64,000 nucleotides of DNA from a virus. The stretch's first letter is position 1. Every line of letters starts with the position of its first letter. This document shows positions 975-36,701 of this stretch, one piece after another. The position numbers and the translations under genes are program-made. The stretch lies in the IMG/VR virus record IMGVR_UViG_3300045988_010396, positions 32,001 through 96,000 of that record; one strand, given 5' to 3'. Under the pieces are notes generated by a model. That model searched no databases. It was not told where the DNA came from and saw only the letters and a program-made list of their open reading frames with translations.

Positions 975-1187
975 TTATTTATTTAAGAATTTATCTCCAT
1001 ATTTTGCAATATATAACTTCTCCCACTCCTCTATAGTATTTTCCTCAATATCAGTGTCTCCACAGTGGTCACAATAGTCCATACCATCAAGGGACATTAT
1101 TCTAAGAGATAAACAACTTTTACAGTATTTAACTGGGACAGAGTTATAATCAAGTGCCTTGGACTCATCTCTAAGTAAGTGTTCCAT
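975..1187 (-). CDS. small zinc-ribbon protein
   Basis: 70 aa with CKSC...CDHC Cys pairs. Confidence 0.4.
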   Translation of the reverse strand: MEHLLRDESKALDYNSVPVKYCKSCLSLRIMSLDGMDYCDHCGDTDIEENTIEEWEKLYIAKYGDKFLNK

Positions 1188-1362
1188 ATAACTATGATTT
1201 ATAATAAACTAAATATATCTGTCCACCAAGAGTAAACATATTTACTATAGCCTCTCTTGGTATACCAAGTTCATTTGCCTGGCTTATTATACCCCTAATT
1301 GTCTGACCTACTATACAAGTCATTACTTTATTCTTCTCACCCATGTTCTAACTATTTTATAG

Positions 1363-1436
1363 TTTCGGGAGTAGGACTCGAACCTACAACCTCCAGCTTA
1401 TGAGGCTGGTTAGCTACCATTGCTAGCATCCCGAGA
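1363..1436 (-). tRNA. tRNA-Met (CAT)
   Basis: reverse complement has GGTTCGAGTCC T-arm, a 7-bp acceptor stem and anticodon loop CTCATAA. Confidence 0.8.
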
Positions 1437-1612
1437 TATTGCCAAGATTTGGTATGGTACTTGGCATTGTAAGGTTAACCTTATACTTACACCCCCAATC
1501 ACCTACACCTATTAAGCTGTTGTTTATACAGGTCAGCTCCTGTTGAGGTTTACCTAGTAGCATTGGGTGTTACTCTATCACTGTAGGTAAGACAGTTTTT
1601 AGTAACTTGTAG

Positions 1613-1686
1613 AGCCTCCCCTCAGAATCGAACTGAGACTCCCTGTTTACAAGGCAGGTTTGCTAAACCATTAACACTAAGGAGGC
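1613..1686 (-). tRNA. tRNA-Thr (TGT)
   Basis: acceptor GCCTCCT/GGGAGGC, T-loop TTCGATT, anticodon loop CTTGTAA. Confidence 0.7.
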
Positions 1687-1690
1687 ATAG

Positions 1691-1772
1691 TACCCCTGAC
1701 AGGAGTTGAACCTGCAATCCCCAAGGGCGTTGGTGTTTAAGACCAATGTGTATTCCATTCCACCACAGGGGC
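1691..1772 (-). tRNA. tRNA-Leu (TAA), type II
   Basis: 82 nt, acceptor GCCCCTG/CAGGGGT, anticodon loop CTTAAAC, 15-nt variable arm. Confidence 0.75.
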
Positions 1773-1779
1773 ATTATAC

Positions 1780-2232
1780 TTAGTAAGGTCTCAAATCACA
1801 TAACTCAAAGAGGTACTTGTATTTCAGTATATTATGTATGAATGTCTCACACTCAGACCTAATTCCTGCATATAGAGTTCCTTCTGGAATATTCTCATAG
1901 AACTTAGTAGTTCCTGCTTTGACCTCATTGATGAAGTCAATAGCATTAAGAGCATCACTAGGAGCACCTTTAATCACATTAGGTTGCATATGTCCAAGCA
2001 ATCCCTGATATTCCTCTGCCAATCCATCCTGATAGTCTGAGATAATACCTAGGAACTCATCTAGGTAAACATGAATATTCTTCTTAGGAGCTGCCCAATG
2101 CAGATTCTTACACTTAGTCTTCCAACCCTCCAGAAGGTTAATGAAGCTAATGAAGAATTGACTAGGGTTCTCATCTTGAGAAGGCTTGAACATCTCATCC
2201 ATTAGCTGATTATCTAGAAAAACACTATCCAT
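1780..2232 (-). CDS. hypothetical protein embedded in the tRNA array
   Basis: 150-aa ORF between two tRNA-Leu genes. Confidence 0.45.
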   Translation of the reverse strand: MDSVFLDNQLMDEMFKPSQDENPSQFFISFINLLEGWKTKCKNLHWAAPKKNIHVYLDEFLGIISDYQDGLAEEYQGLLGHMQPNVIKGAPSDALNAIDFINEVKAGTTKFYENIPEGTLYAGIRSECETFIHNILKYKYLFELCDLRPY

Positions 2233-2318
2233 TTCTCTAATTCTTTATTTGATACTGCAAAGTTAAGCTAAATATTTAACCTATGCAAGTAAATTACATT
2301 ATTTAACTAAATTATCTG

Positions 2319-2401
2319 TACCCTCCAAGGGACTTGAACCCTTATGTACTTAGTACACTAGTTTCTAAGACTAGCCTGTATACCCATTCCAGCAGGAGGG
2401 T
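2319..2401 (-). tRNA. tRNA-Leu (TAG), type II
   Basis: anticodon stem CTAGT/ACTAG, loop CTTAGAA, long variable arm, T-arm GGGTTCAAGTCCC. Confidence 0.75.
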
Positions 2402-2411
2402 GTAAGCTCTC

Positions 2412-2858
2412 TTATAGAGAGCTATATTCTTTTGTAGCATCAAAGCTAGGGCAAGCTTTTGAGCTAAAGTCTCTGTGCCCATGTATAGATGCTTGAGGGT
2501 ACTTAGTCTTTAACTCCTTAAGTAACTTAACTAATGACTGCTTCTGCTGAGCAGTCCTAGTATCTTTAGGTGTCTTGCCATCAGAAGCACATCCTCCTAT
2601 ATAGCATACTCCAATAGAGTTAGCATTATGGCCAGCACAGTGTGCACCTATAATAGACTCATCTCTACCTGTATGTATAGAACCATCTCTATATATTACA
2701 TAATGATAGCCTATATCAGAGAAGCCCCTTTGAAGGTGCCACTGTCTTATAGTATCTACACTATAGTCTTTACCTTCTGGTGTGGCACTACAATGTACTA
2801 TTATTTCATTTATTTTTCTTGCCATACATATATTATAAAACTTATCATGTTCCCCCAC
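2412..2858 (-). CDS. N-acetylmuramoyl-L-alanine amidase (Amidase_2/PGRP fold), probable endolysin
   Basis: IVHCSAT...DIGYHYVI..DG.I..GR...AH...NSIGV..IGG pattern typical of T7-lysozyme-like amidases. Confidence 0.8.
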   Translation of the reverse strand: MGEHDKFYNICMARKINEIIVHCSATPEGKDYSVDTIRQWHLQRGFSDIGYHYVIYRDGSIHTGRDESIIGAHCAGHNANSIGVCYIGGCASDGKTPKDTRTAQQKQSLVKLLKELKTKYPQASIHGHRDFSSKACPSFDATKEYSSL

Positions 2859-2922
2859 TAGGAGTCGAACCTAGCTCTCAGGATTAAAAGTCCAGAGTAT
2901 CCACCATCAATGCTTTGGGGGA
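2850..2922 (-). tRNA. tRNA-Lys (TTT)
   Basis: acceptor TCCCCCA/TGGGGGA, anticodon loop CTTTTAA, T-loop TTCGACT. Confidence 0.75.
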
Positions 2923-2994
2923 GTGAAGCAGGGTCTTTTTAAGAGGTTTCATCTTATTCCTAGGAAAGATTTTTACCCTGCACACCCTCTAGTG

Positions 2995-3068
2995 CGCCTC
3001 CACAAGGACTTGAACCTTGAGTCCCCTGCTTAAGGGGCAGGTGCTTTAACCAATTCAGCTATAGAGGC
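2995..3068 (-). tRNA. tRNA-Lys (CTT)
   Basis: acceptor GCCTCTA/TGGAGGC, anticodon stem CCTGC/GCAGG, loop CCCTTAA. Confidence 0.75.
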
Positions 3069-3074
3069 TTATAG

Positions 3075-3149
3075 ACTTGTAGGTGGGATTTGAACCCACG
3101 AATCACCAGTTTTGCAGACTGTGCCCTTAGACCACTCAGGTACTCCAAG
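3075..3149 (-). tRNA. tRNA-Cys (GCA)
   Basis: T-arm GTGGGTTCAAATCCCAC, anticodon loop CTGCAAA; one acceptor mismatch. Confidence 0.65.
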
Positions 3150-3153
3150 ATAG

Positions 3154-3231
3154 TACTGGCAGAGGGACTTGAACCCCCATGTGACCAATTACCCTTTCTA
3201 GACTGTATAAGAGTCAGGGGATATGCCAGTA
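3154..3231 (-). ncRNA. atypical tRNA-like element (anticodon unassigned)
   Basis: acceptor ACTGGCA/TGCCAGT and T-arm GGGGGTTCAAGTCCCTC are clear, but no canonical D-arm or anticodon arm; internal hairpin GACT-CTTATAC-AGTC. Confidence 0.4.
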
Positions 3232-3238
3232 TGTTGGG

Positions 3239-3311
3239 GTGTCTGATGGGAGTTGAACCCACACTACTTGGAGCCACAATCCAAGGCTCTGACCAATTAA
3301 GCTACAGACAC
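3239..3311 (-). tRNA. tRNA-His (GTG)
   Basis: extra 5' G(-1), discriminator C, anticodon stem TTGGA/TCCAA, loop TTGTGGC. Confidence 0.8.
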
Positions 3312-3313
3312 AG

Positions 3314-3385
3314 TTCTGATGAGTGGACTCGAACCACTAGCTACTGCCTTATGAGAGCAGCTTTCTACCATTGAAATACATCAGA
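3314..3385 (-). tRNA. tRNA with CAT anticodon (second copy; Met/fMet or Ile-lysidine type)
   Basis: acceptor TCTGATG/CATCAGA, anticodon loop CTCATAA. Confidence 0.75.
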
Positions 3386-3391
3386 ATATGT

Positions 3392-3465
3392 AGGTACAAT
3401 AGGACTTGAACCTATAACCTCTTGAATATCAGTCAAGTACTCTAACCAATTGAGTTATGTACCTA
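3392..3465 (-). tRNA. tRNA-Ile (GAT)
   Basis: acceptor AGGTACA/TGTACCT, anticodon stem CTTGA/TCAAG, loop CTGATAT. Confidence 0.8.
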
Positions 3466-3469
3466 TATG

Positions 3470-3542
3470 TGGGAAAGATAAGAATCGAACTTATATCCAA
3501 GGATTTTCAGTCCTCTGCATAGACCATCTTTGCTACTTTCCC
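3470..3542 (-). tRNA. tRNA-Phe (GAA)
   Basis: acceptor GGGAAAG/CTTTCCC, discriminator A, anticodon loop CTGAAAA. Confidence 0.75.
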
Positions 3543-3545
3543 ATT

Positions 3546-3619
3546 GCAGATAGAGTAAGACTCGAACTTACATCTAAGGGTTAACAGCCCCTTGTTCTAA
3601 CCTTTGAACTAAAGACCCA
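3546..3619 (-). tRNA. tRNA-Asn (GTT)-like; acceptor strands do not pair in my reading (possible pseudo-tRNA)
   Basis: D-arm, anticodon arm (loop CTGTTAA) and T-arm resemble E. coli tRNA-Asn, but 5' GGGTCTT does not pair with 3' TCTATCT. Confidence 0.4.
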
Positions 3620-3627
3620 TTATTTGT

Positions 3628-3699
3628 TGCTCCTACAAGACTCGAACTTGTGACCTTTGGTATGTAAAACCACTGTTCTTAACCACTGAACTAAGGAGC
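3628..3699 (-). tRNA. tRNA-Val (TAC)
   Basis: acceptor GCTCCTT/TAGGAGC, D-arm GTTC..GAAC, anticodon loop TTTACAT. Confidence 0.7.
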
Positions 3700-3783
3700 A
3701 TTGATAGGGTAGTTTCTTTAACCTCTAACTACCAAAAGAGGGTTCTAGCAAAAGCTCAACATTATGAAACACGGAAACTAATG

Positions 3784-3856
3784 TGGAGAATGAGAGACTC
3801 GAACCCTCTAATATAGCTTGCAAAGCTATCAGTTTAGCCAGTTAGCTTAATTCCCC
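3784..3856 (-). tRNA. tRNA-Ala (TGC)
   Basis: anticodon stem ATAGC/GCTAT, loop TTTGCAA, discriminator A. Confidence 0.75.
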
Positions 3857-3861
3857 ATTAG

Positions 3862-3934
3862 TATGGGTACTTGGACTCGAACCAAGGACAACTACATCCC
3901 AAATGTAGCATTCTACCTACTGAATTACACCCAT
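3862..3934 (-). tRNA. tRNA-Pro (TGG)
   Basis: anticodon stem CTACA/TGTAG, loop TTTGGGA, T-arm CTTGGTTCGAGTCCAAG. Confidence 0.8.
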
Positions 3935-3940
3935 ATATTG

Positions 3941-4023
3941 CGGAGAGATGAGGTCCCGACCCCCAAGCATTACTGCCCCCATTGTTTTCAAGACAAGTCC
4001 CAGTCCCACTGAGTTATCTCTCC
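3941..4023 (-). tRNA. tRNA-Ser (TGA), type II
   Basis: acceptor GGAGAGA/TCTCTCC, discriminator G, anticodon loop CTTGAAA, long variable arm. Confidence 0.7.
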
Positions 4024-4075
4024 ATTTGCCTACCTACCACTGTAGGATAGGACTTTGGTTTTGTTATAAGTGTGC

Positions 4076-4146
4076 AGACTATGAGGGAATTGAACCCTAA
4101 CCTTCACATTGACAGTGTGATATGCAAACCACTACACTACATAGTC
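4076..4146 (-). tRNA. tRNA-Asp (GTC)
   Basis: acceptor GACTATG/CATAGTC, anticodon stem TCACA/TGTGA, loop CTGTCAA. Confidence 0.7.
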
Positions 4147-4158
4147 TATATAATTTAG

Positions 4159-4230
4159 TACCCCCTGATAGAATCGAACTATCATTCTAAGTTTAGAAGA
4201 CTCATGTATTATCCATTATACTAAGAGGGC
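4159..4230 (-). tRNA. tRNA-Arg (TCT)
   Basis: D-arm GTAT..ATAC, anticodon loop CTTCTAA, T-arm GATAGTTCGATTCTATC. Confidence 0.7.
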
Positions 4231-4238
4231 ATCTCTAG

Positions 4239-4310
4239 TTGGGACTAGAGGTCTCGAACCTCTGCTATAAGAGCCAAAATCTCATGTGACTGCCACTACA
4301 CCAAGTCCCA
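4239..4310 (-). tRNA. tRNA-Gln (TTG)
   Basis: acceptor TGGGACT/AGTCCCA, anticodon loop TTTTGGC, T-arm AGAGGTTCGAGACCTCT. Confidence 0.7.
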
Positions 4311-5057
4311 CTCTGAATTACTCTGCAAAGGTAAGCAAATTTTTTGAATCTACCAAATTTTACTGTAAGAAATTTAATTATTAGAGTCCAGAAAGGTATT
4401 AAGATTACTCTTTTCTATATAATACCTTGTTACCTCTTTGTATTTTAATTAATAATGTGTTCTCAGTATCTACCTCATTAAATCCACCATCAAATATAGG
4501 GTCATAAGCCCAAGATACCATTACTCCATTAAAATACCTATATGTAAGAATATCGCCTCTCTGCAAAGTTATTTTCATAGCCCCATTAATTTATTAGCCC
4601 AACTTTCTGTATAGAAATGATAGTACCCTTCCTTATGATTGTCACAACAATGGATATAACCATTTAACCAAGCATAAAGTATTGAAGGAATACCTAAATT
4701 ATTAGGTATAATATATCCCTAGCCTGTGTTGCCAAGCTTGTTTCATATTAGTTCTGCACTTCGTTGGACCCGTTCTTGGTTATACCCCTAAAGCATATTT
4801 ACCTGTACCTTTTCTCAGTAGTATTGGTTATGCTAATCCAACTTATAACAAAACACTTTGTACCAGTATCGGGGACACCTCATTCCTATATATTGGAACT
4901 ACTACCCAACTTCTGCTCCATTACTTGATTACCTCATGGAGGATAGAGACATACTACCTATCTCTCTGGCAGGTGCAAAGGTAAGTATAAAATCTGATAT
5001 AACCAAATATTTTAAGAAAGTTTAACTATACACTATGGTCTAGGTTAAAAAATTTTA

Positions 5058-5969: not shown

Positions 5970-6346
5970 TAGTCCTCATAGTCATCAGACCTCATAGGAG
6001 AGTGGGAGTAATCCTGCTCTCCTTTATTTTTGAATGAATAATAAACAACAACATATGATTAACAAGCTATTATATCATCCAGACAGTGACTAACTAGGAA
6101 ACAACAACATATGATTATATAGCAGAGGCACTAACTCCTCCCTTGATACTGGCTATACTATTTATTAGCTGACAGTAGAAGTAATAGTAGTAACTAACAA
6201 CAGCAAGATATGATATATTCAAGTATATCTTTAGAGCAAGGTCACTAACTCCCCCCTTGCCCTTGCCTTGCATAGCTAATGCTAATAGTAGTAGCTGTGC
6301 ATGTGCACAAATAACATTTATCACATAACATTTAACATTTAGCACT

Positions 6347-9403: not shown

Positions 9404-9489
9404 ACTCCCTTAGCTCAGTTGGTTCCGCAAGGCTTGAGAGCATCGGACTTTTAATCCGAGGGTCATGGGTTCGAGTCCCATAGGGAGTA
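9404..9489 (+). tRNA. tRNA-Lys (TTT)-like with a roughly 13-nt insertion in the D-loop
   Basis: acceptor ACTCCCT/AGGGAGT, anticodon stem TCGGA/TCCGA, loop CTTTTAA, T-arm ATGGGTTCGAGTCCCAT; D-arm GCTC...GAGC encloses extra CCGCAAGGCTTGA. Confidence 0.55.
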
Positions 9490-9506
9490 CTATTCATTTC
9501 ATTCAA

Positions 9507-9826
9507 GGGGCTGTATTTGGTCTTGACTGGTGGCTACTTGGTATGAGGACATGCAGAGACTGATGGAGAGACATCAAAACTTTAGGTGGCAACAGAATTT
9601 CTGCACCTGTAGCTCTTGCTGCTTAAGCAATCTACTGAGTTAGTCACTGACTTGGAAACAGAATAGTGACAAGACAAGATTTCTTGCATAGATAAATGCA
9701 AGTGGTGGACTATGTTGACAATCCAGTCAACCCCAGCAGAGAACCAACTGCATAATAAAGTGGTAAGCATGTGTAATCCTTATATTGAGAGCTATTAGGA
9801 CAGGGGTTCGACTCCCCTCAGCTCCA
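9507..9826 (+). ncRNA. ssrA: tmRNA (SsrA-like)
   Basis: 5' GGGGCTGTATTTGG...GACTGG and 3' GGACAGGGGTTCGACTCCCCTCAGCTCCA closely match the E. coli ssrA ends; acceptor GGGGCTG/CAGCTCC; internal tag frame GGC AAC AGA ATT TCT GCA CCT GTA GCT CTT GCT GCT TAA = ...NRISAPVALAA*. Confidence 0.8.
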
Positions 9827-9902
9827 GAGGCACGTTGTTAGATACTTCCACGTAGTGTGCCTTGGGTTAAAAGCTAGATTCTAACAAAAAAAAAAAGATT
9901 AT

Positions 9903-20343: not shown

Positions 20344-20874
20344 ATGGCAAAAGCATTGATTTTAGCTAAGACTGGGTTTGGTAAATCCAGTTCACTGGTT
20401 GGTGTACCCTCTGCTGGTATATTAGGCTTGGACCCTAAGGAGACTTATCTCCTTAGCTGTGTTAATAAGCCTCTGCCTATCAAGGGTGCATCTAAGATTT
20501 ATGTGCCTATACCTATGCAGGGTATTACTCCTGCTAACTTAGGTTCAGTCATAGGTAAGGGCAACAGGATTATCACCAAGGATGCCAAGATTGTAGCTGC
20601 TGCTATAGAGTTGCTAATCAATTCACCCTTCAAGAACATAGTAGTTGATGATATGAACTATCTATCGCAGGACTACTATATGAAGAATGCCATGAAAGGT
20701 GGTTGGGACACTCCTAAGCAGATAGGTTACAATATGGGTCTTATCTTTGACCAGATTGACAATGTGCCTGAGGATAAGAACATTATCTGTATGGCTCACT
20801 TTGAGACCTACAAGGATAAGAATGGTGACTCCATCTCTTACAAGTACAAATCAACTGGTAACATGGTAGCATAA
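20344..20874 (+). CDS. small P-loop protein
   Basis: N-terminal AKTGFGKSS Walker-A-like motif. Confidence 0.35.
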   Translation: MAKALILAKTGFGKSSSLVGVPSAGILGLDPKETYLLSCVNKPLPIKGASKIYVPIPMQGITPANLGSVIGKGNRIITKDAKIVAAAIELLINSPFKNIVVDDMNYLSQDYYMKNAMKGGWDTPKQIGYNMGLIFDQIDNVPEDKNIICMAHFETYKDKNGDSISYKYKSTGNMVA

Positions 20875-21084
20875 CATCTGCCATTATCTATCTAATTGCT
20901 GGAACACCCTAAAGACAACTGAACTACAAAGTAATTGGTAACAATAAGCTTGAATGTTTGAAAATCAGTTGTATTCTTAGTGATGGAGAAATGGGCAATC
21001 AGCAGCCAAGGGACTCTACGAGTTCAAGGTTCATCGACTATCCCCTGTTGTGGGGGAGTACATTTATAAAGTAATCAATTATAT

Positions 21085-21699
21085 TTGGAAATGGTAGACA
21101 ATAGAGAAGTACACATTTATGCATTAAGACATCCTGATACCTTAGAAATAAGGTATGTCGGTAAAACAGTGAGAAAATTAAGTAGAAGGTTAGGGAATCA
21201 TATTGCAAATGCTAAAGGTAACCAGCACAATAAGCATTTAAGTAATTGGATTCTTAATATCTTGAAGGAAAATAAGAAACCTGTAATAGAACTCTTGGAA
21301 ACTTGTCAAAGTAATAACTGGCAAGAAAGAGAGCAATATTGGATTTCTCAATTTCCTAATCTGATAAATCTCACTGCTGGAGGAGATGGATGTGTAGGTT
21401 TTATTCATGATTCTAAAGCTATAGAAAAGATTAGACAATCTAAATTTGGTACTAAACATTCTGTAGAATTTAAGGAAGCTATGAGTAAAAGGCTTAAAGG
21501 TGTGCCTCTTAGTGAAGAACATAAAAGTAAAATAGGTTTAGCTAATAAGGGAAGGAAGGCTTCGGAAACTGCAAGAAAGAGGCTATCAGAATCCCACAAA
21601 GGTATTACTCAGAGTGAGGAATCCAAAAGAAAAAGAAGTGAATCTATTAAACTTTGGTGGACTAAGAGAAAGTCTATTGAAGATATAGTCAAATCTTAA
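21085..21699 (+). CDS. GIY-YIG homing endonuclease
   Basis: HIYAL...IRYVGKT...R...N (GIY-YIG) with C-terminal K/R-rich NUMOD-like repeats. Confidence 0.75.
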   Translation: MEMVDNREVHIYALRHPDTLEIRYVGKTVRKLSRRLGNHIANAKGNQHNKHLSNWILNILKENKKPVIELLETCQSNNWQEREQYWISQFPNLINLTAGGDGCVGFIHDSKAIEKIRQSKFGTKHSVEFKEAMSKRLKGVPLSEEHKSKIGLANKGRKASETARKRLSESHKGITQSEESKRKRSESIKLWWTKRKSIEDIVKS

Positions 21700-31588: not shown

Positions 31589-32191
31589 ATGGAGTGTAGT
31601 ATTTGGATTTATCAAAAATTCTTAGTATCTTTGCACTTTGCAACTAAAGTTTTTGAAGATATGGAAGAAATTTGGAAAGACATTCCTGGATATGAGGGAT
31701 TGTACCAAGTTAGTAGTCTTGGAAGGTTCAAAGCTCTGAGTAGAGTAAGAAAGGGAATTTATGGAAATAGAATCTACAAGGAAAAGTTATTATCTCCTAA
31801 AGTGAATTTTGATAGGTACTACTATGTAACCTTAACTAAGGAAGGTAAGAAAACTAGTTATAGAGCACATAGACTAGTAGCTTTAGCTTTTCTTGGAGAT
31901 AGCAATCTAGTCATAGACCACATTGACGGTAATCCCTTGAATAATGAGGTTACTAATCTAAGATATGTATCTCAAGCTGAGAATGTTTCTAATCCTAATA
32001 CTATATGTAAGCAGTATAAGCCTGTTATACAGTTGTCTATGGATGATACTGTTATAGCTGAGTATCCTTCAGTTATGAGTGCTGCACTAGCAGTGGGAGC
32101 TTATAAATATGGGACTCATATAGGGCAGTGCTGTAATGGAAAGAGGACTACTGCATATAATTATAAATGGAAATGGAAAGAAAAAGTATAA
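31589..32191 (+). CDS. HNH homing endonuclease (NUMOD4 plus HNH_3)
   Basis: WKDIPGYEGLYQVSSLGRFKAL then AHRLVALAFLG...DHIDGNPLNN...N. Confidence 0.75.
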   Translation: MECSIWIYQKFLVSLHFATKVFEDMEEIWKDIPGYEGLYQVSSLGRFKALSRVRKGIYGNRIYKEKLLSPKVNFDRYYYVTLTKEGKKTSYRAHRLVALAFLGDSNLVIDHIDGNPLNNEVTNLRYVSQAENVSNPNTICKQYKPVIQLSMDDTVIAEYPSVMSAALAVGAYKYGTHIGQCCNGKRTTAYNYKWKWKEKV

Positions 32192-33216
32192 AAGACATCT
32201 CATGGCAAGTTTCAGAGCCAACCTATAGGGCTGATAGTGCTATAAGCTATTCAACCCTAAGTAGATTTGAAAGGGAAGGGTGGAGAAAGCTTGGCTCACT
32301 CTTTGATAAGATTGAAACACCCTCACTCACATTTGGAAGTGCTGTTGATACTAAGCTGACTGATGGGGATGAGGCATTCAATGAGAGGTTCATTGTATGT
32401 GACTTCCCACCATTGTCAGATACATTGATAAGCATTACAAAGTTCCTCCACAAGAACTTCCATGAGAGCCATAGGAAACTCAGCATGATAGATGATGCTG
32501 AGATTAGTAGGGCTGCATTGATGTTCAACTATTATGCTAATCCCAAGTATGAGAACTTTAGGGTAAAGAGTATTAAGGAGAGCTGTAGTGAATACTATTC
32601 ACTTCTTACATTAGCAGGAGACAGGACTGTACTATCACAGAATGACTATGCTGACGTAATGGCTTGTGTGGAAGAGTTAAAGACCAATTCAGCAACCAAG
32701 TATTTCTTTAGCTCAAATCCTTTTGAGACTCAGATTGAGAAGGTGTTCCAGTTGAAGTTCAGAGCAGAGTTTCAAGGCATACCTGTCAGATGTATGTTTG
32801 ACGAGATTATTGTAGACCATGAGAAGAAGATAATATACCCTATAGACTTAAAGACTACAGGTCACCCTGAGGAAGAGTTTGAGGAGTCTTTCTCTCAATG
32901 GAGATATGATATTCAAGCCAAGCTATATACCTATATATTACAGGAGTGTATCAAGAATGATGAGTACTTCAAAGACTTCAAGATACAGCCCTATCAGTTT
33001 GTAGTTATAAACAGAAGGACTGTAGCTCCTATTGTATGGGTGTTTGAAGGGAACTTTGGACAAGTAGACCTTAAAGATGACAAAGGTAATATATTGAGGG
33101 ATTGGAGGAAGATACTCAGTGAACTTCATTATTACCTGAGATACTCTGGCAAATATAGTATAAGGGCAATGGAAAATAACTGTGTATTAAAGATAAATAA
33201 TTTGACAATATGTTGA
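32167..33216 (+). CDS. RecB-family PD-(D/E)XK exonuclease (lambda Exo / Cas4-like fold)
   Basis: FDEIIVD...IDLKT...QWRYDIQAKLY (D, D-x-K, QxxxY). Confidence 0.6.
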   Translation: MEMERKSIKDISWQVSEPTYRADSAISYSTLSRFEREGWRKLGSLFDKIETPSLTFGSAVDTKLTDGDEAFNERFIVCDFPPLSDTLISITKFLHKNFHESHRKLSMIDDAEISRAALMFNYYANPKYENFRVKSIKESCSEYYSLLTLAGDRTVLSQNDYADVMACVEELKTNSATKYFFSSNPFETQIEKVFQLKFRAEFQGIPVRCMFDEIIVDHEKKIIYPIDLKTTGHPEEEFEESFSQWRYDIQAKLYTYILQECIKNDEYFKDFKIQPYQFVVINRRTVAPIVWVFEGNFGQVDLKDDKGNILRDWRKILSELHYYLRYSGKYSIRAMENNCVLKINNLTIC

Positions 33217-34970
33217 AAGTAGTTAAGAGAGACAGAAGTATTGAGGACTTTAATGCCCAAAAGGTAGTCAGTGCAGTCCAGAAGGCATTTGCATCAGCGG
33301 GATGTGTTTTTTCTGAGTATCTGAACACAATGATACCTGCCTTGTTTGAAGAGGGGGATATTATTGGTGTAGAGGATATACAGGATAGAGTAGAGCAACT
33401 GCTGATGAATGACAAGCACTTCAAGGCTGCTAAGTCATATATCCTATATAGGGAGAAGCACAAGCAAGCCAGGTTTATTAGAGAAAGGATTGATTATATG
33501 TCCAACTATGCAGATTCTGATGATAATGCTGCTAGTTCTTCAGAGACTGACCCTAATGCTAATGTAACCCAGAAGAATGTTGCCAATCTTGATGGGGAAG
33601 TTTATAAGACAGAGAATAGGATTATTCAGAGGCAAAGGATGAAGGATGAACTTAATATCCTTTATCCAGAGGTAGCAAAGCAGTATGAAGTGGATATTGA
33701 GAACCATATATTCTACCCTCACGATGAAGCTAGTGTACCTACTTTGAAGTTCTATTGTCAGGCAGATACTCTTTATCCACTTATGACAGAAGGTGTAGGT
33801 AATATAGATGGTGTGACACCAACTCCTCCTAATGATTTACAATCATTTAGTGGACAAATAACTAATCTTACCTTCTTGCTTTCTTCTCAGTGTAAAGGTG
33901 CAGTAGCCTTTGGAGAATATTTCATTGCTCTGAACTATTACATCATTGCAGAGTTTGGGGATAAATGGTATGAGAAGCTTGATTGTGTTGTAACGTCTCC
34001 TCATTGTAGGATTCAAAGAACAGTCAGAGATTTCATAGAGAAAGCCTTCAAGCAGTTTATCTATGGCATTAATCAACCTGCTGGTAATAGGTCATATCAG
34101 AGTCCATTTACAAATGTATCTTATTATGACCATACATACTTTAGTTCATTGTTTGGAGAATTTTGTTATCCTGATGGAACTAAGCCTGAGTGGGCTGCAA
34201 TTAATGTTCTTCAGAAGATGTTTATGAAGTTCTTCAATAAACTTAGAACCAAGCAGATTTTGACCTTCCCTGTTGAAACACTGGCAATGGTACATGATGA
34301 CAAGGATATTATAGACAGAGAATATAAGGATTTCTGCGCAGAAATGTATGCAGAAGGACACTCATTCTTTACTTATATTTCAGATAGTGCTGATAGTCTT
34401 GCATCATGCTGTAGATTGAGAAATGAACTTGCAGAGAATACTTTCAATCCTACATCAGGTCTTACTGGTGTTATGACTGGTAGCTGCAATGTTATCACTC
34501 TTAATATCAATAGGATTATACAGGATTGTGATAAGGCTTATGGGTTGAAGAGAAATGGTGGTTGGAAAGAGAATACCTCATTTATTAAGGATTACTTAGT
34601 AGATATTCTTCATAGAGTCTATAAGTATCATATTGCTTATAAGACTATGCTCTATGAACAAGAAGAGAAAGGTATGTTTGCAGCTTGCAATGGTGGATAT
34701 ATCAGGGTGTCAAAGCTATACAGTACCGTAGGTATCAATGGCTTGAATGAGGCTGCTAAGTTCTTAGGTCTTGAAGTATCTAACAACAAGGACTATATAG
34801 AGTTCTTGCAGTTGGTTCTTGGCACTATTAAGGAACAGAACAAGTTACACTCTATCCATGACAAGAAGAGACCTTTCCTGTTTAATTCTGAGGTAGTTCC
34901 TGCTGAGTCTCTCGGTGGTAAGAATTATAGATGGGATAAAGAGGATGGATTAGAACCAATGTCCATCTAA
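33210..34970 (+). CDS. nrdD: anaerobic ribonucleoside-triphosphate reductase NrdD, N-terminal 586 aa (ATP-cone plus catalytic barrel)
   Basis: ATP-cone VVKRDRSIEDFNAQKVVSAVQKAF; length and order consistent with class III RNR; lacks the Gly-radical C-terminus. Confidence 0.8.
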   Translation: MLKVVKRDRSIEDFNAQKVVSAVQKAFASAGCVFSEYLNTMIPALFEEGDIIGVEDIQDRVEQLLMNDKHFKAAKSYILYREKHKQARFIRERIDYMSNYADSDDNAASSSETDPNANVTQKNVANLDGEVYKTENRIIQRQRMKDELNILYPEVAKQYEVDIENHIFYPHDEASVPTLKFYCQADTLYPLMTEGVGNIDGVTPTPPNDLQSFSGQITNLTFLLSSQCKGAVAFGEYFIALNYYIIAEFGDKWYEKLDCVVTSPHCRIQRTVRDFIEKAFKQFIYGINQPAGNRSYQSPFTNVSYYDHTYFSSLFGEFCYPDGTKPEWAAINVLQKMFMKFFNKLRTKQILTFPVETLAMVHDDKDIIDREYKDFCAEMYAEGHSFFTYISDSADSLASCCRLRNELAENTFNPTSGLTGVMTGSCNVITLNINRIIQDCDKAYGLKRNGGWKENTSFIKDYLVDILHRVYKYHIAYKTMLYEQEEKGMFAACNGGYIRVSKLYSTVGINGLNEAAKFLGLEVSNNKDYIEFLQLVLGTIKEQNKLHSIHDKKRPFLFNSEVVPAESLGGKNYRWDKEDGLEPMSI

Positions 34971-35743
34971 AACCTCTTTTAATTGACTCAGAAGTCCCTA
35001 TGGGATTATGAGGGGCAAGCAAGGGAAACCTGTGCAGCCTGACAGACTAAACAAAGAGGACTTTAATATACAATCTGTGAAGATAGAATATTAAAGTATG
35101 CAATAGTCGGAACTCTATGGTAACATAGAGAGGTTAATAGAAATATTAACCCATTTATTAGAAATATGGTTATAATCTTGCATAATTGGGATAAAAGTTT
35201 TAACTTTGCTCCCAAAATGATTAAGTATGGAGACTAAATTATGTAAGATTTGTGGTAGAGAATTACCATTGGAGATGTTTGATGAAGGAAGACATCAATG
35301 TAAGGATTGTAGAAGAGCTTATAGGAAGCAAAGGAGATTGGAACATCCTGAGATTCACAGGGCACAAGCTACAAGAAGGCAGGATAGGCAAGGAGAATGG
35401 CTTAATAGCATAAAAACTCCCTGTATTGTCTGTGGAGAAGCAGAACCTGTTTGTATTGACTTTCATCATATCAATCCAGTAGATAAGGAATTTACCATAG
35501 GTAAGTATAGAAGTAGGAGCAAGGAGTGGCTTCTGCAAGAAGTAAGTAAGTGTGTTTGCTTATGTGCTAATTGTCATAGGAAAGTACATGCTGGTTTGAT
35601 AAACTTAAATAACTATATTGCTAATGAATCACCTCTCTGCACAACGGGAGAGGGTGTAACAGAATGATTGGGTCCCTGAAGATGAAAATCTTTACAACTC
35701 ATATTTCTTTGATGCCCATAATGATACTTCAGTACTAGATAAG
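34971..35743 (+). mobile_element. intervening element in nrdD: candidate group I intron carrying an HNH endonuclease ORF
   Basis: GACAGACTAAAC at 35041-35052 resembles the group I P7(3')-J7/3 element (Tetrahymena CAGACUAAAU, T4 td GUGCUAAAU); HNH ORF inside; nrdD halves flank it. Confidence 0.5.
35227..35667 (+). CDS. HNH endonuclease (intron/insertion-encoded)
   Basis: CKICGR...CKDCRR...HHINPVDKE...CANCH.KVH. Confidence 0.75.
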   Translation: METKLCKICGRELPLEMFDEGRHQCKDCRRAYRKQRRLEHPEIHRAQATRRQDRQGEWLNSIKTPCIVCGEAEPVCIDFHHINPVDKEFTIGKYRSRSKEWLLQEVSKCVCLCANCHRKVHAGLINLNNYIANESPLCTTGEGVTE

Positions 35744-36079
35744 ATGATTCTGCATGGAAGGCAGACAGCACAATATTGTGACGGAGGCTCAGCTTGTCAT
35801 ATCAATCTTGAAGACCATCTGAGCAAAGAGCAGTATCTCAAGCTGATAGACTTTGCTGTAGCTAATGGAACAAACTACTTCACATTTAATATCCCTAATA
35901 GTAAGTGTGATGATTGTGGTTACATTACTAAGCATCCTATCACTGAGTGTCCTAAGTGTCATAGTAAGAACATTACTCAATATACAAGGGTTATAGGATA
36001 TTTAAGACCTATTAAGTCCTTTGGTAAGGATAGACAAATAGAGGCTAACAAGAGAGTATATAGTAATAATATAGAATAA
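35744..36079 (+). CDS. nrdD: NrdD C-terminal segment (Zn ribbon plus glycyl-radical domain)
   Basis: CDDCGY...CPKCHS followed by TRVIGYL (RVCGY glycyl-radical motif). Confidence 0.75.
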   Translation: MILHGRQTAQYCDGGSACHINLEDHLSKEQYLKLIDFAVANGTNYFTFNIPNSKCDDCGYITKHPITECPKCHSKNITQYTRVIGYLRPIKSFGKDRQIEANKRVYSNNIE

Positions 36080-36242
36080 TGGAAGATTATGAAATAATTG
36101 ATTGGCCTGATGTTCAAGCATATATGGAGTTAGAAGGGTTTGAAGAGAATAGTACTCTAATAACCCCTAATGACAGTATGGGAATAGGGTCTTCTACATA
36201 TCTTGTAGATAAAGAATGGTATGATTCGGTAAGAGCTGTGAT

Positions 36243-36701
36243 ATGATTAAATATGTAGATACTTTAATTGGGTTTGCAGAAATTCCTAATGAAATTTCTC
36301 TATGTATTAATATAAGTAATTGCCCCTGTCATTGCGAAGGATGTCACTCATCTTACTTAGCACAAGATATAGGAGAACCTCTTGATTTACAACATTTGAC
36401 TAACCTTATTGATACTAATAAGGGTATAACATGTGTATGTATAATGGGAGGTGATGCTAATCCAAGTGAAGTAGATGATATTGCACAAGACATTAAGGAA
36501 TACTATCCAGAATTGAAAGTTGGATGGTATAGTGGAAGGCAAGAGTTAAGTAATGACATTGACCTATTCAACTTTGACTATATAAAACTTGGACCATATA
36601 AGGAAGAGTTTGGTCCACTTAACAGTAGGACTACTAATCAAAGACTATATCAAATAAAGAATCATAAAATGTTAGATATAACATCTAGATTTTGGAAATA
36701 G
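36243..36701 (+). CDS. nrdG: anaerobic RNR activating enzyme NrdG (radical SAM)
   Basis: CPCHCEGC = C-x3-C-x2-C cluster motif; follows nrdD. Confidence 0.7.
   Translation: MIKYVDTLIGFAEIPNEISLCINISNCPCHCEGCHSSYLAQDIGEPLDLQHLTNLIDTNKGITCVCIMGGDANPSEVDDIAQDIKEYYPELKVGWYSGRQELSNDIDLFNFDYIKLGPYKEEFGPLNSRTTNQRLYQIKNHKMLDITSRFWK

Follow-up and report, generated by a model that had tools for sequence, protein, structure and literature searches.

Is a gene that lies in two open reading frames (ORFs) on a phage genome two genes or one? The question arises at nrdD, the gene of the class III (anaerobic) ribonucleotide reductase, in a stretch of viral DNA of 64,000 nucleotides (nt) that comprises positions 32,001 to 96,000 of the IMG/VR record IMGVR_UViG_3300045988_010396. 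This whole stretch is referred to as the window, and all positions are given in its numbering. Ribonucleotide reductase genes are the phage genes most often interrupted by introns, and nrdD was the one most commonly split in a 2013 survey (PMC3653736). Here the two parts of nrdD are separated by DNA that carries an ORF for a putative HNH endonuclease. We conclude that the gene is very probably interrupted within codon 581 by a mobile group I self-splicing intron.

The insertion in nrdD and the joined reading frame

By megablast the window falls among the Steigviridae crAss-like phages (IAS virus 89% identical, cr111_1 80%), and judged by sequence its phage is crAss-like, of a Beta-group/Steigviridae-like kind. 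Pfam finds the ATP-cone (E=7.5e-18) and the N-terminal part of NRDD (E=2.5e-49) in the ORF at 33210-34970, and the C-terminal part of NRDD (E=2e-24) in the ORF at 35744-36079. This agrees with a preliminary description of this DNA, in which NrdD was encoded by one ORF for the ATP-cone and catalytic part and a second for the Zn ribbon and glycyl-radical domain. All features expected of a class III NrdD are found: NRDD matches on both exons, the ATP-cone, the RVIGY motif, a CxxC..CxxC pattern and a neighbouring nrdG.

In IAS virus and cr111_1 nrdD is uninterrupted and encodes 725 and 716 amino acids (aa), respectively. DNA alignment against both genes reveals one clean insertion in the window gene, placed between ...GATGGAT and ATTGGGT... 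and spanning 34951-35666. The boundaries cannot slide, because the bases flanking each edge differ. The preliminary description had given the intervening element as 773 nt. This is indeed the gap between the two ORFs, but the true insert measures 716 nt, since exon 1 ends 20 nt upstream of the stop codon of its ORF and exon 2 starts 77 nt upstream of the first ATG of the downstream ORF. The terminal base of the insert, as set by the alignment to the intron-less alleles, is G35666, the position of the omega-G of group I introns.

When 34950 is joined to 35667, the predicted ligated sequence GAGGATGGAT followed by ATTGGGTCCC forms an in-frame ORF of 2154 nt for an NrdD of 717 aa, so that exon joining restores a continuous frame as had been anticipated. 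The joined protein is 86% identical to IAS NrdD, in which the junction peptide KEDG-Y-WVPEDENL corresponds to KKDGYWVPEDENL, and its residues 102-712 align without a break to the NrdD of Thermotoga maritima (4COI, E=6e-54). Between 35660 and 35744 ATG, GTG and TTG are all absent. Positions 35667-35743, 26 codons that precede the first possible start, are nevertheless conserved, three of their four differences from IAS virus being synonymous. As none of them can serve as a start, these codons can be translated only after the exons have been joined.

These codons bear directly on the possibility that the gene is split without splicing, with a free-standing HNH gene between a 586-aa and a 111-aa fragment that reassemble non-covalently, comparable to nrdA/mobE of Aeromonas phage Aeh1. 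Such an arrangement would agree with two ORFs that each have a start and a stop codon, with the lack of a group I match in Rfam at this locus, and with one nrdD gap reported in the Jug jumbo phages without evidence of splicing (PMC12880540). However, the first start of the downstream ORF lies 26 codons inside conserved, in-frame NrdD sequence with mostly synonymous differences from IAS virus. The separately made halves that the preliminary description had offered as its second explanation are thus disfavoured by codons that are conserved without a start, and we regard this arrangement as very improbable. The simpler variant of a split by a free-standing endonuclease was considered and rejected.

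Two other kinds of insert can be judged from the reading frames and the gene content. An intein would fit nrdD, which is a frequent intein host; the nrdD of the Prevotella phage Lak-B1 apparently has one at SCC^RLKN (here and below the caret marks a point of insertion). In the window, however, an in-frame stop codon (UAA, 34968-70) is met 18 nt inside the insert, and no two of exon 1, the HNH ORF and exon 2 share a reading frame, by which an intein is rejected. A group II intron is likewise rejected, as there is neither a reverse transcriptase ORF nor an Rfam group II match. Taken together we consider an intein or a group II intron in place of a group I intron hardly credible.

The ribozyme core and its guide sequence

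The insert contains helices in the order P3-P4-P5-P6-P7-P3'-P8-P7'-P9, as seen from covariation, from RNAalifold and from hairpins predicted sequence by sequence, and together with P1 the complete architecture of a group I intron, whose prediction had been proposed as a check, was found (Table 1). P7 has the form C-(A bulge)-GACUA/UAGUCG, with the 5' strand pairing to 35104-35109, and crosses P3, which results in a pseudoknot. With its bulged nucleotide and the conserved sequences resembling R and S, P7 provides the predicted guanosine-binding site. The 12-mer GACAGACTAAAC (35041-35052), which the preliminary description had read as the P7/J7-3 segment, comprises the P7 5' strand and J7/3 of this covarying helix system. 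Taken by itself the 12-mer is weak evidence, as the window contains about 15 matches to the motif with two mismatches. A fold of the 287-nt core gave z = -5.9. P7 appears in the minimum free energy (MFE) structure and P3 in the centroid, as is expected of a pseudoknot.

Relatives of the element were collected by blastn and then by two pattern scans of IMG/VR, which yielded 42 further loci. From these, 24 distinct trimmed cores were aligned with MAFFT from sequence only. The proposed pairs of P3, P4, P5, P6 and P7 can form in 95.6% of the cells of this alignment, compared to 37-50% when the partners are slid. Compensatory double changes occur in 12 of the 28 core pairs: in P3 as listed in Table 1, from GC to AU and back in P4, between GC and CG in P6, and in the distal pair of P7, which has switched between CG and GC in 10 of 22 sequences. 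From the alignment alone RNAalifold identified the same columns for P3 to P6a. For P9 and P9.1, 93.9% of the cells pair (27-56% when slid) and 10 of 15 pairs covary, including all 8 of P9.1. The helices are thus backed by covariation among some 30 diverged relatives taken from viral metagenomes. The hairpins P5 and P6a keep their position among the relatives while their sequence varies, the L9 loop is of the GNRA type in every relative, and the strings AGACUAAA and AUGCAAUAGUC are invariant across the intron family, from which P7.1 and P7.2 are absent. The 3' tail GUAACAGAAUG is kept at both nrdD sites described below and in the Lak phage, and the form GUAACAGAAU(U)G is conserved among the relatives.

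The most mechanism-specific evidence comes from the retargeting of the guide. At the site occupied in the window (site A), the exon sequence GAUGGAU pairs with GUCCAUC in P1, whose eight base pairs end with the wobble U34950.G34961 at the splice site. The loop of P1 carries the P10 guide CCAAU (34956-60), which is complementary to the beginning of exon 2, AUUGG (35667-71). One relative (L020) has GAUGGGU in the exon and GCCCAU in the guide, a compensated change with respect to the GAUGGAU/GUCCAU of the window. Further relatives that share the core and the 3' tail are located at a second site (site B), 17 codons upstream in nrdD at FN(T/S)E.(V/I)P^AES. Their guides match this site instead, in the exon/guide combinations AGUGCCU/GGGCACU, UGUCCCU/GGGGACA, AGUCCCU/GGGGACU and GUAUCCCU/GGGGAUAU, each with a U.G pair, while P10 is formed by GCUG/CAGU. 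Some site-B relatives lack an ORF altogether and measure about 305 nt (e.g. L013). In others that same 3' peripheral region holds a different, larger ORF, the insertions falling where the window has its P9.2-like hairpin. The split gene without splicing leaves all of this unexplained: a covarying ribozyme core, a guide that matches both exons, the U and G at the boundaries and the relatives that lack an ORF.

Table 1. Positions of the nrdD locus, the elements of the putative intron and a second intron in the window
Feature	Position	Strand	Description and basis
Second group I intron, classical type (predicted)	20774-21155	+	RF00028 51 bits, just over the 50-bit cut-off
Upstream nrdD ORF	33210-34970	+	586 aa; ATP-cone and NRDD profile positions 3-428
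nrdD exon 1	33210..34950	+	ATP-cone and catalytic barrel; codons 1-580 and first base of Tyr581; Pfam; 3' end from DNA alignment with IAS virus and cr111_1
P1 hairpin	34943..34968	+	exon GGAUGGAU (34943-50) with guide GUCCAUCU (34961-68); MFE fold; matched changes of exon and guide in L020 and site-B relatives
Group I intron (putative)	34951..35666	+	716 nt; preceded by U34950, last base G35666 (omega-G); segment missing from the IAS virus and cr111_1 alleles
P3 5' strand (CCUCUUU)	34973..34979	+	partner 35053-35059; compensatory changes in 6/7 pairs; found independently by RNAalifold
J3/4 and P4-P5-P6 domain	34980..35040	+	covariation in P4, P5 and P6
P4, P5, P6 and P6a	P4 34987-90/35009-12; P5 34993-98/35002-07; P6 35013-16/35037-40; P6a 35019-24/35029-35	+	P6a with GAAA loop
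J6/7, P7 5' strand, J7/3 and P3 3' strand	35041..35059	+	P7 5' strand C35043, bulged A35044, GACUA 35045-49; P3 3' strand 35053-59
P8 hairpin	35060..35097	+	hairpin with identical boundaries in 31/31 distinct relatives; stem sequences unrelated
J8/7, P7 3' strand, P9 and P9.1	35098..35151	+	J8/7 AUGCAA; P7 3' strand UAGUCG (35104-09); covariation
P9 and P9.1	P9 35113-19/35124-30; P9.1 35132-39/35144-51	+	P9 with GUAA loop; P9.1 with GAAA loop
Peripheral hairpin (P9.2-like)	35186..35215	+	just 5' of the HNH ORF; MFE and centroid folds; alone not significant (z = -0.9)
HNH endonuclease ORF, intron-encoded (putative)	35227..35667	+	146 aa; N-terminal CxxC...CxxC ribbon; DFHH...N...CANCHRKVH
3'-terminal hairpin and conserved tail	35630..35666	+	tail GUAACAGAAUG (35656-66); within the end of the HNH coding region; fold
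nrdD exon 2	35667..36079	+	rest of Tyr581 to stop; Zn ribbon and glycyl-radical motif RVIGY; alignments
Downstream nrdD ORF	35744-36079	+	111 aa; NRDD profile positions 462-560, Zn ribbon, YTRVIGYL
nrdG (activating enzyme)	36243..36701	+	downstream partner of nrdD, outside the intron; Pfam Fer4_12 E=2.4e-5

Several observations weigh against a self-splicing group I intron. P2 is absent, P4 has just four Watson-Crick pairs, and P1 does not continue beyond the U.G. The pattern searches demanded conserved core strings, so that the set of relatives is biased and variation in P7 and J8/7 is limited by design. For the encoded ORF Pfam makes no HNH call at threshold (no match at E<=0.01; HNH_2 reaches E=0.026 and 14.8 bits against a cut-off of 21). 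Finally, the Rfam group I model RF00028 gave no match on the nrdD gap, even at E<=10 with permissive filters, and none on four relatives without an ORF; a search of the whole window at the gathering threshold likewise returned no group I match for the nrdD element. In a control, the same model scored the nrdD (sunY) intron of phage T4 with 105 bits, in line with its earlier mention as a known group I intron site, and a second intron of the window with 51 bits. Since the T4 control is scored this well, the miss is specific to the family, and from the comparison with the two introns that are matched we conclude that the family is a divergent subtype. The search of the gap with the Rfam model had been proposed as a check, and because its result is negative, this check alone would have led to a wrong dismissal of the intron. 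The RF00028 score helps detection but does not define a group I intron, and all the defining structural features that we examined are present.

The short P4, the absent P2 and the lack of a match to the curated model could also be expected of a decayed group I intron that splices inefficiently, which would make nrdD a pseudogene or a poorly expressed gene. In contrast, in many phage backgrounds the core has stayed 95-99% conserved, and its changes compensate rather than disrupt pairing. Both exons are intact, the protein being 86% identical to that of IAS virus, nrdG is intact downstream, and the odd features are common to the whole family including the copies without an ORF. We consider decay very unlikely.

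Predicted splicing, the endonuclease and the spread of the intron

Based on the standard group I pathway, an intact intron would be removed as follows. The whole gene would be transcribed as a single pre-mRNA, in which the intron core folds into P3 to P9 with the P3/P7 pseudoknot. The internal guide sequence (34956-67) would position the 5' exon in P1, at U34950.G34961, and the 3' exon in P10. Next, P7 would bind a free guanosine, which would attack after U34950, and the released 3'-OH of exon 1 would attack after the omega-G, G35666. Ligation of the exons would create the codon U^AU (Tyr581) and with it the continuous NrdD of 717 aa, while translation of unspliced RNA would end at the UAA beginning at 34968. 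Splicing and catalysis in vivo are presumed from this pathway.

The ORF in the intervening stretch, described as an HNH endonuclease from the start, belongs to this family by its HNH motif and by matches to two PHROG families of HNH endonucleases (phrog_2255, E=8e-30; phrog_3106, E=1e-23). A sequence search of the PDB returned just a match of 17 residues to a McrA-like motif (E=1.1). The stop codon UGA (35665-67) straddles the 3' splice site, and the last dozen codons also form the 3' hairpin and the conserved tail. The product is probably a homing endonuclease. It presumably cuts or nicks the intron-less nrdD of co-infecting phages near GGAT^ATTGG, whereupon repair would copy the intron into the gene. 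A group I intron with a homing endonuclease, as the preliminary description had proposed, is upheld by the boundary bases, the in-frame join, the P1 and P10 complementarity and the covariation of the core.

IAS virus and cr111_1 lack the intron, but many contigs of about 97 kb contain it. By blastn the whole element was also found in Prevotella Lak megaphages at the same nrdD codon, with 94% coverage and 68% identity. We compared the identity of intron copies to that of the flanking exon segments of 300 nt. Copies 95-99% identical to that of the window occur where the exon segments are just 62-86% identical; in L020, for example, the exons are 62% and 69% identical to those of the window, the core 96.7% and the ORF 94.5%. 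The converse is seen in L014, where the exons are 99.7% and 98.3% identical but the intron is 743 nt long with an HNH variant of 76%. Similarly, the exon flanks of L008 are 88-95% identical, and its 743-nt intron carries an HNH ORF about 75% identical to that of the window. L014 and L008 suggest that the intron or its cargo may have been swapped within one phage lineage. The distribution of the intron is sporadic and its history is decoupled from that of the host gene. Given this decoupling and the copies in Lak phages, the comparisons show an intron that moves horizontally, with HNH-driven homing as the probable route.

The nrdD of Lak-B1 (L003, MK250020; about 980-4600) is seemingly interrupted at least four times. 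Besides the intron studied here these breaks are an intein-like in-frame insert at the active-site motif (SSC^CFDG...THN^CRLKN), an insert with an ORF of 155 aa (2216-2683) and one break directly after ...DRIIG in the glycyl-radical motif. In the Lak-B1 copy of the HNH ORF (about 3880) an in-frame TAG is aligned to a CAA (Gln) codon at 35326-35328 of the window. Amber-to-Gln recoding has been described for Lak phages, and the TAG is compatible with this.

A scan of 185,579 cellular genomes/species gave a single match (L046), in nrdD at the second site. It is located on a 21.8-kb contig (CAVAGP010000036) of a metagenome-assembled genome of Faecalibacillus sp.; the contig is binned with a Firmicute and may be phage or prophage. 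Within the window a motif scan found no further copies of the intron family, all motifs being combined only at nrdD. A third subgroup in IMG/VR (L027-L029, L031, L035-L044) has the same conserved core in a host gene other than nrdD (...NKDNFWLNSYW..LDG), and its P9 region includes the sequence GGTTCGAnTC, which resembles a transfer RNA (tRNA) T-arm. On another contig of 8 kb (L030) two copies of the J8/7-P7' core are located 1.8 kb apart, at 6065 and 7856.

For a broader reading we see about even chances. In this reading a group I lineage specialised on nrdD and unseen by Rfam hops among unrelated gut phages, reaches two sites by retargeting of its guide and has its endonuclease cargo swapped. 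The hosts would comprise crAss-like Steigviridae, Prevotella Lak megaphages, phage contigs of 115-172 kb and the contig binned with a Firmicute, and the retargeting would have occurred between sites 17 codons apart with the same catalytic core and 3' tail. If true, this would be a natural case in which an intron was retargeted and in which phage lineages with Bacteroidota hosts in common exchanged genetic material.

Known systems, neighbouring genes and implications

The intron in nrdD (sunY) of T4 is located in the same host gene and likewise has a homing endonuclease ORF 3' of its catalytic core. However, its 1033 nt are inserted at about codon 180 of 605 compared to codon 581 of 717 here, it encodes the GIY-YIG enzyme I-TevII instead of an HNH enzyme, the core subtypes differ, and a sequence relationship between the two introns is not detectable. 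On these grounds the two introns are independent acquisitions, as the preliminary description had suspected; the different response to RF00028 points the same way.

Group I introns are known from crAss-like phages, mainly in core genes of the Delta and Zeta groups (Yutin et al. 2021, PMC7886860). Our case resembles these in the phage order and in the presence of introns with endonuclease ORFs in core replication or structural genes, the intron in the Sak4-like/ATP_43b gene of the window being another of this sort. It differs in phage group (Beta-group/Steigviridae-like) and in host gene; the passages of that paper that were consulted do not name nrdD among the intron hosts. The Jug jumbo phages of Bacteroides are also gut Bacteroidota phages, and their nrdD is fragmented by group I introns and by HNH or other endonucleases; metatranscriptome reads confirm its splicing (PMC12880540). 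They belong to a different phage lineage. By description the encoded enzyme can be likened to I-TevIII of the phage RB3 nrdB intron and to the I-HmuI type, small intron-encoded HNH enzymes with a zinc-binding N-terminal part (PMC1865063). Its best matches are PHROG 2255 and 3106.

Between nrdD and nrdG the window has an ORF of 55 aa (36079-36246) without a family match. This gap is a variable slot: IAS virus has no gene here, cr111_1 has a different ORF of 79 aa, and L010 and L021 share an unrelated ORF of 86 aa. At the position homologous to nrdG a 4Fe-4S protein is annotated in IAS virus. The second intron of the window interrupts a gene for a Sak4-like/ATP_43b ATPase that starts at 20344, and is accompanied by an ORF for a GIY-YIG and NUMOD3 endonuclease (21085-21699). 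The window further contains, at 1362-4310 (-) and 9404-9829 (+), an array of 17 tRNA genes and a phage transfer-messenger RNA (tmRNA; Rfam 83 bits; ARAGORN tag peptide ASGGLC*), and a tRNA-like gene with an 'anticodon' of two bases is located directly 5' of the tmRNA.

Selfish elements of this kind are well known, and the intron leaves the textbook picture unchanged, its one unusual aspect being that very different gut phages contain near-identical copies. Of modest interest are that it is invisible to the standard model, that it is found at two sites in nrdD, and that it is common to crAss-like and Lak phages. In annotation, the nrdD of this phage and of many related crAss-like contigs should be entered as one spliced gene and not as two fragments and a hypothetical protein. 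Intron screens based on Rfam will miss this nrdD intron family. The intron at the same codon in crAss-like and Lak phages marks the exchange of DNA between very different phages of related gut Bacteroidota, and the two neighbouring sites with their retargeted guides illustrate how such introns may reach new sites.

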